Positions 12,186 through 13,607 of a stretch of DNA of 26,275 bases are shown piece after piece. The stretch is taken from assembly GCA_032027005.1 (NCBI GenBank), contig JAVSMW010000006.1, positions 111,268 through 137,542 of the forward strand, given 5' to 3'. The position numbers were made by a program, and so were the translations under genes. The notes below the pieces were generated by a model, which worked only from the letters and a program-made list of their open reading frames with translations, was not told the DNA's origin and ran no database searches. Origin of the DNA: Thermincola sp. (GTDB taxonomy: Bacteria > Bacillota > Thermincolia > Thermincolales > UBA2595). How positions within the stretch are numbered: position 1 is the first letter of the stretch; each line of letters opens with the position of its first letter.

Positions 12186-12389
12186 ATGCCAATTTACGAA
12201 TATAAATGCGCCAATGGTCATGTTTTTGAAGAATGGCAAAATATCAACGACAAACCGTTGGAAAAATGCCGGATTTGCGACGCTGATGTGAAAAAATTGA
12301 TTTCCCGGTTCAAGACTCAGCGTTTATGGAACGGTTCAGGTATTTATGTTTTTGACCGGGCCGGCAAAAGTCCTGATTGGAACCGGTAA
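12186..12389 (+). CDS. FmdB-family putative zinc-ribbon protein
   Basis: The N-terminus MPIYEYKC..GHVFE....CRICD..VKKLIS matches the FmdB/CxxC_CxxC_SSSS pattern. The first knuckle is C-x3-H instead of CxxC. GAGGAGGG lies upstream. Confidence 0.7.
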   Translation: MPIYEYKCANGHVFEEWQNINDKPLEKCRICDADVKKLISRFKTQRLWNGSGIYVFDRAGKSPDWNR

Positions 12390-12420
12390 CTTACCAGCTT
12401 GATAAAAGGGGGCGATCGGC

Positions 12421-12858
12421 ATGGAAATTGAGAGTTTAGTCGTAGAGGGACACTTAGTTTCCGGATTGGGAGAGGGGACTTACATGACCAAACTGGAGTG
12501 GGTAGAGTTGCAGTGCCAGAAAAAATTCGGTTTTCATCCTCAACCGGGAACATTTAATATCCAGCTCGATAAGAAAGAGAGCGAGCGCTACTCAATAGTA
12601 AAAAAATATCGGGGGATAAAAATCCTTCCGCCTTCCGATATCTTTGCTGCGGCAAAATGTTTTCCGGTTCAAGTAGGAAAAGTTAAAGGTATCGTAGCGA
12701 TTCCCCTGCTGGATGATTACCCCCCAAACATTCTGGAAATCATTGCGCCCATACGGATGAGGGATGCGCTGGGTGTCCGGGAAGGCGACCTGATCCAGGT
12801 AAAGATTGAATTGGGATCTTTTGTTAAACGAGGTGATGACCAATCGGAGTTGAAGTAA
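12421..12858 (+). CDS. ribK: CTP-dependent riboflavin kinase, archaeal type (DUF120/RibK family)
   Basis: It matches the archaeal RibK pattern throughout: EGHLVSGLGEGTYM, FGFHPQPGTFNIQLD, ILEIIAPIRMRDALGVREGDLIQVKI. These resemble the M. jannaschii-type enzyme as I remember it. Confidence 0.8.
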   Translation: MEIESLVVEGHLVSGLGEGTYMTKLEWVELQCQKKFGFHPQPGTFNIQLDKKESERYSIVKKYRGIKILPPSDIFAAAKCFPVQVGKVKGIVAIPLLDDYPPNILEIIAPIRMRDALGVREGDLIQVKIELGSFVKRGDDQSELK

Positions 12859-12929
12859 TAAGCTTTGATGTTCACGGTACCCTTGTCGAAAAAGGTGGCG
12901 TAAAGGCTTTCAGGGCGGCAGTCAAATCG

Positions 12930-13607
12930 GTGGTATCTTTTTTGAATTCCCGGGATGTTCATTTGACTGAAGAAGATTATTTTTCGATCTGGAAAAACAA
13001 TTTGAAATGCTGGTCAAGCTATTTGCATGAAAACAAAGAAGTTGACTTTTACCGGTGGTATGAGGGCATATTGTACCGGGTCGGAATAGCTTACGACAAA
13101 AGTTTGATTGATTTATTCAATAATTATTGGATGGAGGGTTTCAAAAACTTTACTAAGCCGATTCAAGGTGCGGGAAAACTTCTTTCGGAACTCAAACGGC
13201 AGGGGTACAAATTAGGGGTTGTTTCCAACGGTTTAGCCCGAAATAATGTTTTGGATCTACAGCGGACCGGGCTGGAAAGTTATTTCAGTTCTATCGTCAT
13301 CTCCTCAGACGTGGGTTACAGAAAACCTGAGTCGGCACCTTTTTTAAAAGCACTGGCTGAATTGGAAACAAACCCTCAGAATGCGGTTATGGTCGGCGAC
13401 AGTATGAAAGAAGATATTTGTGGCGCTAAAAAAGTTGGCATGAGAACAGTCTGGGTAAGAGGATGCGATGGGTTGAGAACCGTTACCGATAAGGTATTGG
13501 ATTCGGATGCAGCCGTGCAGCCCGACGAGACTGATGTGGCTGATGTGGTCGTAGATCAGCTAGAGGAATTGTATTTGCTTCTTTCAGCAGGGCGCTGGCC
13601 AAGCTAA
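12930..13607 (+). CDS. HAD-IA family hydrolase; the true N-terminus probably lies upstream (frame open from 12840)
   Basis: Motif II is LGVVSN, motif III is RKP and motif IV is VGDSMKEDICGAKKVG. The nucleophile motif ISFDVHGTL is encoded at 12858-12884, in frame but upstream of the first canonical start (GTG 12930). Confidence 0.75.
   Translation: MVSFLNSRDVHLTEEDYFSIWKNNLKCWSSYLHENKEVDFYRWYEGILYRVGIAYDKSLIDLFNNYWMEGFKNFTKPIQGAGKLLSELKRQGYKLGVVSNGLARNNVLDLQRTGLESYFSSIVISSDVGYRKPESAPFLKALAELETNPQNAVMVGDSMKEDICGAKKVGMRTVWVRGCDGLRTVTDKVLDSDAAVQPDETDVADVVVDQLEELYLLLSAGRWPS

Follow-up and report, generated by a model that had tools for sequence, protein, structure and literature searches.

The stretch of Thermincola sp. 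DNA analysed here, 26,275 nucleotides long and called the window below (G000:C6:111268-137542), is one long run of plus-strand genes. It encodes six paralogues with UbiD domains, five Mrp/NUBPL-type ATPases and several small proteins (Table 1). The subject of this study is a block of three genes at 12186-13607, in which a homologue of the archaeal riboflavin kinase RibK stands between a zinc-ribbon protein and a hydrolase of the HAD-IA family. A preliminary description had listed these three open reading frames (ORFs) and their operon-like spacing, and both hold: all three lie on the plus strand at these positions, Pfam confirmed their families, the intergenic gaps around the block are 44, 31 and 62 nt, and no terminator-like site was found on the plus strand between 9700 and 16900. 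Promoter-like matches were no more frequent in the window than expected by chance, and neither a flavin mononucleotide (FMN) riboswitch nor any other Rfam family was found in it at the gathering threshold. Further downstream, the gene order from 16407 to 20681 (gamma-like subunit, PpcA-like UbiD, benzoate-CoA ligase, UbiX) agrees with abcD-abcA-bzlA-ubiX, the putative anaerobic benzene carboxylase locus of Thermincola-like Clostridia in culture BF and in nitrate-reducing cultures (PMC13101534, PMC5852087). Metagenome contigs 93% to >99.9% identical to the window carry the same RibK-HAD block. One of them (L020) has the same layout including the block, with at most 5 mismatches in 13,960 aligned bases; another (L070) also has the same layout and is 93% identical over the stretch from the zinc ribbon to the HAD gene. 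To our knowledge, the carboxylation of benzene as such has yet to be proven in published work.

Table 1. Features of the window, and members of one family found beside RibK in other genomes
Feature	Position	Strand	Support
Two Mrp/NUBPL-type P-loop ATPases, upstream flank of block	9801-11697	+	ParA PF10609 E 2.6e-68 for 10774-11697
Conserved small protein, 133 aa, upstream of zinc ribbon	11740-12141	+	same neighbourhood around homologues in L020, L021 and G128
FmdB-family zinc-ribbon protein, 67 aa	12186-12389	+	Zn_ribbon_8 PF09723 E 1.3e-13; TIGR02605
DUF120/RibK-type riboflavin kinase homologue, 145 aa	12421-12858	+	PF01982 CTP-dep_RFKase
HAD-IA hydrolase, motif I FDVHGT	12858-13607	+	HAD_2 E 1.6e-29, Hydrolase E 6e-22; likely start ATA 12858
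Conserved small protein, 131 aa, downstream of HAD	13670-14065	+	homologues in L021, L023, L070 and G128; dN/dS 0.30
Two Mrp/NUBPL-type P-loop ATPases, downstream flank	14102-16158	+	ParA PF10609 E 4.2e-70; MrpORP-like, below cut-off
abcD-like small subunit (PpcC-like, gamma-like)	16407-16787	+	Phenyl_P_gamma E 3e-7
abcA-like UbiD (PpcA-like)	16807-18345	+	UbiD domains
Benzoate-CoA ligase (bzlA)	18407-20032	+	benz_CoA_lig TIGR02262 E 1e-201
UbiX flavin prenyltransferase, presumed FMN consumer	20088-20681	+	TIGR00421 254 bits vs cut-off 108.9; NF004685 265 vs 188
Members of a ~190-aa Cys family, other genomes	L014:2425-2994, L015:2589-3173, L016:1900-2454, L034:7408-7977		

An archaeal-type RibK in a bacterial genome

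The kinase homologue matched PF01982 over model positions 2-121 of 121 with an E-value of 3.9e-29 and 101.5 bits (gathering score 25), which bears out the DUF120/RibK-type kinase that the preliminary description had recognised from the motifs GLGEG, GTFN and LEIIAP. By residue, these are GLGEG at 15-19, PGTFN at 42-46 and LEIIAP at 105-110. By sequence, the protein matched MJ0056 with E 8.5e-15 and the kinase domain of RbkR with E 1e-12, and its identity to these known enzymes is 29%. The AlphaFold model (pLDDT 87.8) gave Foldseek TM-scores of 0.82 to 5trd and 0.75-0.80 to 2vbv, the cradle-loop barrel of MJ0056 and RbkR, and no fold other than this one was found at E <0.01. When 2 archaeal and 10 bacterial sequences were aligned, no substitution occurred at the Thr and Asn of PxGTxN or at the Glu of LEIIAP, and the ratio of non-synonymous to synonymous substitutions (dN/dS) relative to related copies is 0.19-0.30, indicating purifying selection. 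The window kinase, encoded in a bacterium, genuinely belongs to the archaeal RibK fold family.

With both the CTP-dependent RibK of Methanocaldococcus jannaschii (MJ0056; PDB 2VBU/2VBV) and the RbkR kinase domain of Thermoplasma acidophilum (PDB 3CTA/5TRD) the window protein shares PF01982, the fold, the glycine-rich loop, PxGTxN and the LEIIAP Glu. It differs from both in scoring below the NCBIfam equivalog cut-offs, in not being the only riboflavin kinase of the cell, and in its place in an aromatic-carboxylase operon with UbiX and UbiD, a context seen at none of 30 archaeal loci. The other kinase is a bifunctional RibF (a 333-aa frame with FAD_syn and Flavokinase domains, C1:334692-335570); RibH is present as well. 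The preliminary description had left the presence of ribF/ribC elsewhere in the genome to be checked, and with RibF found, the window RibK is not a housekeeping kinase that replaces it.

The genome holds ~22 UbiD-like genes, two intact ubiX genes and two DUF120 copies that are 34% identical to each other, and each intact ubiX lies in a cluster with one RibK. The second DUF120 gene, on contig C2, overlaps ubiX by 4 nt in a phenylphosphate synthase/carboxylase cluster, where a gene for IDI-2 lies ~9 kb from ubiX. This phenol cluster (G000:C2:28306-42290, L004) comprises IDI-2, five UbiD genes including PpcA/B-like ones, a PpcD-like HAD, UbiX, RibK, PpsB and PpsA. A third ubiX (G000:C18:46387-47881) is split over two or three frames and adjoined by PpsA-like fragments and a piece of UbiD, and by its sequence the region looks like a decayed phenol-type cluster; a short ubiX fragment is also present in the genome.

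Distribution and neighbourhoods of the bacterial copies

A profile search returned 4277 relatives of the window kinase, many of them named as bacterial. PF01982 was found in 10 of 400 other genomes of the window's phylum, in 2 of the 40 closest relatives and, as one weak match, among 400 Pseudomonadota besides the Aromatoleum seed, compared with 35 of 38 genomes of one methanogen phylum. The claim in a 2017 paper that RibK orthologues are absent from Bacteria (PMC5397151) is too strong, and the present data correct this textbook statement.

A tree of 24 bacterial and 17 archaeal sequences, the latter from one methanogen phylum and Thermoplasma, was calculated without a root. Bacterial and archaeal RibK separate in it on a starred branch (95/89). 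The preliminary description had left an archaeal origin to be tested by phylogeny; the tree did not show one, and recent transfer from archaea is unsupported, the bacterial copies forming a group of their own apart from the archaea sampled. The window RibK groups with two other copies (L021 and L023) and the second copy of the genome falls into the phenol-cluster clade, indicating that the two were acquired with their respective clusters and did not arise by local duplication.

Linkage to genes for the synthesis or use of prenylated FMN (prFMN) occurs in nearly every bacterial subclade of the tree. Genome G003 has the order RibK-UbiX-UbiD, and UbiX-RibK-Nudix is found both in the Aromatoleum phenol cluster and in L028. 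RibK adjoins an energy-coupling factor (ECF) S-component and UbiD in G266, HAD-RibK lies among UbiD genes in L072, where a HAD of the window type adjoins UbiX, and RibK::HAD fusions adjoin IDI-2 or UbiD. One protein is a UbiX::RibK fusion (G393/L073), with a HAD of the window type adjoining and Mrp and UbiD genes upstream. A full HMMER scan with this fusion gave no second UbiX::RibK fusion among the best 150 matches, and returned proteins consisting of UbiX only, as well as UbiX fused to CBS, PNPOx, PAC_bac or IPPT. UbiX lay within 3.5 kb in 5 of 8 homologues picked only for the size of their contigs. It scored above the cut-off in 70 of 151 phylum genomes searched, this genome included, and in 4 of the 5 DUF120-positive genomes that had shown no UbiX in the first, short flanks. 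In contrast, none of 30 archaeal RibK loci, examined over 1.5 kb per side where the contig allows, had a UbiX, UbiD, HAD, IDI-2 or Nudix neighbour. The tie of the kinase to UbiX and UbiD that the preliminary description proposed is therefore recurrent, appearing as adjacency or fusion in many unrelated bacteria. A family common and unlinked in related Firmicutes would have spoken against this tie; instead, it occurs in those 10 of 400 genomes, and most copies are linked.

The fullest prFMN supply set among the loci examined is the operon of genome G128 (L089, G128:C71:1-11433), which comprises Mrp, two small-protein homologues, an AbcA-like UbiD, a zinc ribbon, a further UbiD, UbiX, RibBA, IDI-2, RibK::HAD, a PNPOx-like protein and IclR. 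Its zinc ribbon is 57% identical to that of the window and lies between two UbiD genes, away from RibK, which led us to reject the assignment of the zinc ribbon to a flavin block. A zinc ribbon upstream of RibK is found in L020, L021 and L070 as well as in the window, and homologues of the two small proteins that flank the block also travel with Mrp and UbiD genes in G128. Judging from these arrangements, the zinc ribbon is probably a small partner of the carboxylase genes and not a flavin gene.

The HAD-IA hydrolase and its start

The assignment of the third gene to the HAD-IA family stood, but the start listed for it, GTG 12930, did not. This is the first canonical start, and it omits motif I with the nucleophile Asp. 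Motif I (S-F-D-V-H-G-T-L) is encoded at 12861-12884, upstream of GTG 12930. It shares the frame of that start, and this frame stays open from 12840 onward; in the window, L020 and L070 alike, the open frame has no ATG, GTG or TTG ahead of the motif. The missing canonical start is common to this lineage, as was checked by comparing independent assemblies, whereas in relatives at 52-77% identity the gene begins with an ordinary GTG or TTG and encodes a full-length product of 254-257 aa with the same motif I. The gene call of the protein collection (P0121, 249 aa) starts at ATA 12858 and gives the N-terminus MSFDVHGTL. A GGAG sequence lies 8 nt before this ATA, which itself overlaps the RibK stop codon (TAATA), an arrangement that fits translational coupling of HAD to RibK. 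On balance, the sequence favours translation of the HAD from such a coupled, non-canonical start. The junction between the two genes (12833-12930) is plastic: compared with L023, the 3' end of RibK is in another frame and reads past the ancestral TGA, adding 8-14 residues.

Alternatively, the HAD may be N-terminally truncated, starting at GTG 12930 without the nucleophile Asp, and be a non-catalytic remnant or a binding protein outside any supply route, which we consider possible but distinctly the less probable case. The lack of a canonical start before motif I in the window, L020 and L070 agrees with truncation, and gene callers begin the L020, P0123 and P0124 HADs no earlier than the internal start, leaving motif I out. 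Likewise, the HAD part of a HAD-MarR protein at the end of the operon aligns only with the C-terminal half of HAD models, and the 24 codons before GTG 12930 have a dN/dS of ~0.95, a value that comes from only 6 differences. The open frame, the GGAG and the TAATA overlap argue against truncation, as does the motif I of the relatives with canonical starts. In addition, the 12-codon core of motif I, FDVHGTLVEKGG, shows one synonymous change only between strains at 93% DNA identity. The dN/dS of the whole gene (0.21-0.36) indicates purifying selection.

Motifs II-IV are intact and invariant in the clade (VVSN at 120-124, RKP at 155-157 and GD...ED at 180-186, P0121 numbering). Motif I deviates from DxDx(T/V) by a His at Asp+2, which is invariant in all 6 clade members aligned; we refer to such proteins as DVH-type HADs. 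The best-scoring relatives, TIGR02253 (CTE7), YjjG, REG-2-like proteins and PH1655 (PDB 2HOQ), share motifs II-IV, but at the position where phosphatases carry the general-acid Asp the window protein has His (DVHGT). Against characterised equivalogs (YigB, the phosphatase of 5-amino-6-ribitylaminouracil 5'-phosphate (ARPP), YjjG, PGP and PpaX) the protein stayed far below all cut-offs, the best score being 118.8 vs 169.75 for TIGR02253, with 36.8 vs 225 for YigB; the NCBIfam models whose cut-offs it does pass are all generic HAD-IA ones. The nearest solved structure, PH1655, is labelled putative hydrolase only. Another HAD known from a UbiD-carboxylase operon is PpcD, the KdsC-like subunit of phenylphosphate carboxylase, of which the phenol cluster of this genome has one. 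It belongs to another HAD subfamily (Hydrolase_3/IIIA, about 170-180 aa), and tblastn with the window HAD against the phenol loci did not retrieve it.

A second DVH-type HAD, 40% identical, is encoded in the same genome (G000:C9:41595-42209). Its counterpart in a metagenome-assembled genome of Thermincola ferriacetica (L074:7977-8747) follows hydantoinase A/B-like genes, indicating that this HAD clade is not confined to UbiX contexts.

A possible supply line for prenylated FMN

UbiX requires reduced FMN and dimethylallyl monophosphate (DMAP). In E. coli, the latter is thought to arise from Nudix hydrolysis of dimethylallyl diphosphate (DMAPP) or from phosphorylation of prenol. UbiD-type (de)carboxylases are being investigated both as biocatalysts and for their part in degrading benzene, naphthalene and phenol anaerobically, and a common obstacle with these enzymes is obtaining enough correctly made prFMN. 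The window itself contains UbiX and six UbiD paralogues, and the neighbours of RibK map onto the two substrates of UbiX, with RibK and RibBA on the flavin side and IDI-2, Nudix and HAD on the prenyl phosphate side. The UbiX-UbiD systems described so far, as far as we could find, have no dedicated riboflavin kinase or phosphatase, in contrast to the window.

From this context, RibK is probably an accessory, operon-encoded riboflavin kinase that provides FMN for UbiX and prFMN, with the HAD acting in the same supply line. RibK would make FMN, which UbiX would prenylate to prFMN, the stoichiometric cofactor for the many UbiD-type carboxylases of the operon and the genome. The housekeeping RibF carries FMN onward to FAD, and a second kinase, expressed together with the carboxylases, would keep FMN available upon induction of these highly abundant enzymes. 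IDI-2 would make DMAPP, and the HAD would supply one of two precursors by dephosphorylation, either DMAP from DMAPP or, from ARPP, the riboflavin intermediate ARP. The substrate and phosphate donor of RibK, the hand-over of FMN to UbiX and the substrate of the HAD are what we infer in this scheme.

Conversion of DMAPP to DMAP is suggested by the IDI-2 neighbour, by the Nudix protein that takes the place of the HAD in other clusters, and by the absence of the general-acid Asp from the HAD, an absence that is tolerated if the leaving group is a phosphoanhydride. We regard this role as possible, though doubtful. Slightly less probable is conversion of ARPP to ARP, suggested by the RibBA neighbour and the fusion of HAD to RibK. 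The RibBA neighbour backs a flavin-pathway phosphatase as well as IDI-2 and Nudix back the DMAPP role. What probability remains falls to other substrates or an inactive protein.

A wider and more speculative proposal is that the DUF120 kinases, their partner phosphohydrolases (DVH-type HAD, Nudix, fused HAD and histidine phosphatase), IDI-2, RibBA and PNPOx-like proteins together make up a pathway for prFMN precursors in anaerobes, one that is dedicated to this purpose and has so far gone undescribed. RibK would then pass FMN, possibly in reduced form, directly to UbiX, and the HAD with His for Asp would be the phosphatase so far missing between DMAPP and DMAP, adapted to a phosphoanhydride as leaving group. 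In this complete form we hold the proposal to be rather doubtful.

Several observations weigh against a role of RibK and HAD in prFMN supply. Both NCBIfam equivalog cut-offs were missed by the window kinase (64.5 vs 168 for NF040694, ribK_Meth, and 92.7 vs 279 for NF010762, wHTH-riboflavin kinase), placing it in a divergent subfamily whose substrate could differ. The window RibK lies 7 kb from UbiX and is not adjacent to it, and five other bacterial DUF120 genes (L013, L031, L032, L030 and L006, the last a histidine-phosphatase fusion) have no prFMN neighbour. The homologues were selected with a profile whose seeds were themselves linked to UbiX. Phenol clusters, moreover, move as units, so that many of the linked cases are not independent. 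On the side of the HAD, the missing canonical start and the dN/dS of the codons before GTG 12930 have been described above. The DVH-type HAD is moreover rejected as an exclusive partner of UbiX: among five loci from other lineages, it is linked in L072 and L073 and unlinked in L071 and L074, while L075 is a short contig showing no neighbours. Finally, the assignment of RibK to FMN supply for prFMN, well supported as it is by gene context, is comparative throughout.

The low equivalog scores would also suit a protein that has the RibK fold and does a different job in the prFMN pathway, phosphorylating prenol or dephospho-prFMN, or carrying FMN or FMNH2 to UbiX without kinase turnover. The grouping of the bacterial copies apart from the archaeal enzymes is compatible with such a change, and the phosphohydrolases with which RibK is repeatedly paired come from three superfamilies (HAD, histidine phosphatase and Nudix), a hint that more phosphate chemistry is involved than simple FMN supply. 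There is a precedent in RbkR, where the domain can act as a ligand sensor (PMC5397151). However, neither the catalytic residues (Thr, Asn and Glu) nor the glycine-rich loop vary among the archaeal and bacterial sequences, the model superposes on 2vbv, which is a complex with CDP and FMN, and the presence of RibBA as a neighbour in G128 suggests that riboflavin is the substrate, which makes a different job unlikely.

Very unlikely is a chance presence of RibK and HAD in the operon as general flavin salvage or homeostasis genes with no specific tie to UbiX and UbiD: some bacterial homologues do stand alone or beside unrelated genes (L013, L031, L032), one lies near ribD (L018), and the IDI-2 and PNPOx-like neighbours are flavoproteins, so that any flavoenzyme-rich operon might attract a kinase, but chance adjacency to a gene of 1-3 copies is estimated at well below 1%, against UbiX or UbiD within a few kb in about half or more of the bacterial loci examined and none of the 30 archaeal ones, a UbiX::RibK fusion exists, and the two intact-ubiX clusters of this genome have one RibK each.

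We found no literature linking a riboflavin kinase with UbiX, UbiD, prFMN, phenylphosphate or anaerobic benzene degradation, in a search with subscription journals outside its coverage. The papers on the benzene carboxylase cluster name abcA, abcD, bzlA and ubiX and not the upstream RibK-HAD genes, and the word 'riboflavin' occurs in neither (PMC13101534, PMC5852087). New here are the abc-operon context, the presence of one RibK per intact ubiX cluster, the DVH-type HAD and the anomaly of its start codon, and the G128 operon, which adds RibBA and IDI-2. A function of RibK and HAD in prFMN supply would bear on the origin of the prenyl donor DMAP and on cofactor supply and maturation in strict anaerobes. 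The set that travels with ubiX (second riboflavin kinase, phosphohydrolase, IDI-2, RibBA and PNPOx-like protein) offers concrete candidates for co-expression, including for reconstitution of the putative benzene carboxylase.

Two further families recur beside the kinase. PNPOx-like FMN-binding proteins are encoded next to RibK and UbiX in four loci (L027:7418-7891, L028:7933-8394, L029:2520-3035 and L089:1782-2246), and a UbiX::PNPOx fusion is present in a representative library (P0148); they are candidates for a flavin reductase or a prFMN maturation factor in anaerobes. Four unrelated genomes (Table 1) encode, immediately next to RibK or RibK::HAD, a family of ~190 aa with five invariant Cys residues that is absent from the genome of the window. 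It gave no Pfam or PDB-sequence match, and its AlphaFold model (pLDDT 81) had no significant fold match in the PDB.

Within the window, the first upstream ATPase (9801-10730) is a paralogue of the one at 10774-11697, with 51% identity by tblastn, and is also supported by a PF10609 gene call in L020. The small proteins of 133 and 131 aa on either side of the block had no Pfam match. Directly after ubiX, a gene for a MarR domain fused to a HAD-like domain (20785-21816), followed by a DDE transposase (22172-23626), marks the border of the locus. At the other end, a stretch of ~1.1 kb (5001-6200) separates the first Mrp gene from the UbiD gene that follows; it contains only short ORFs and has a G+C content of 0.34, compared with 0.45-0.57 around it, and may mark the edge of a module or have a regulatory role.

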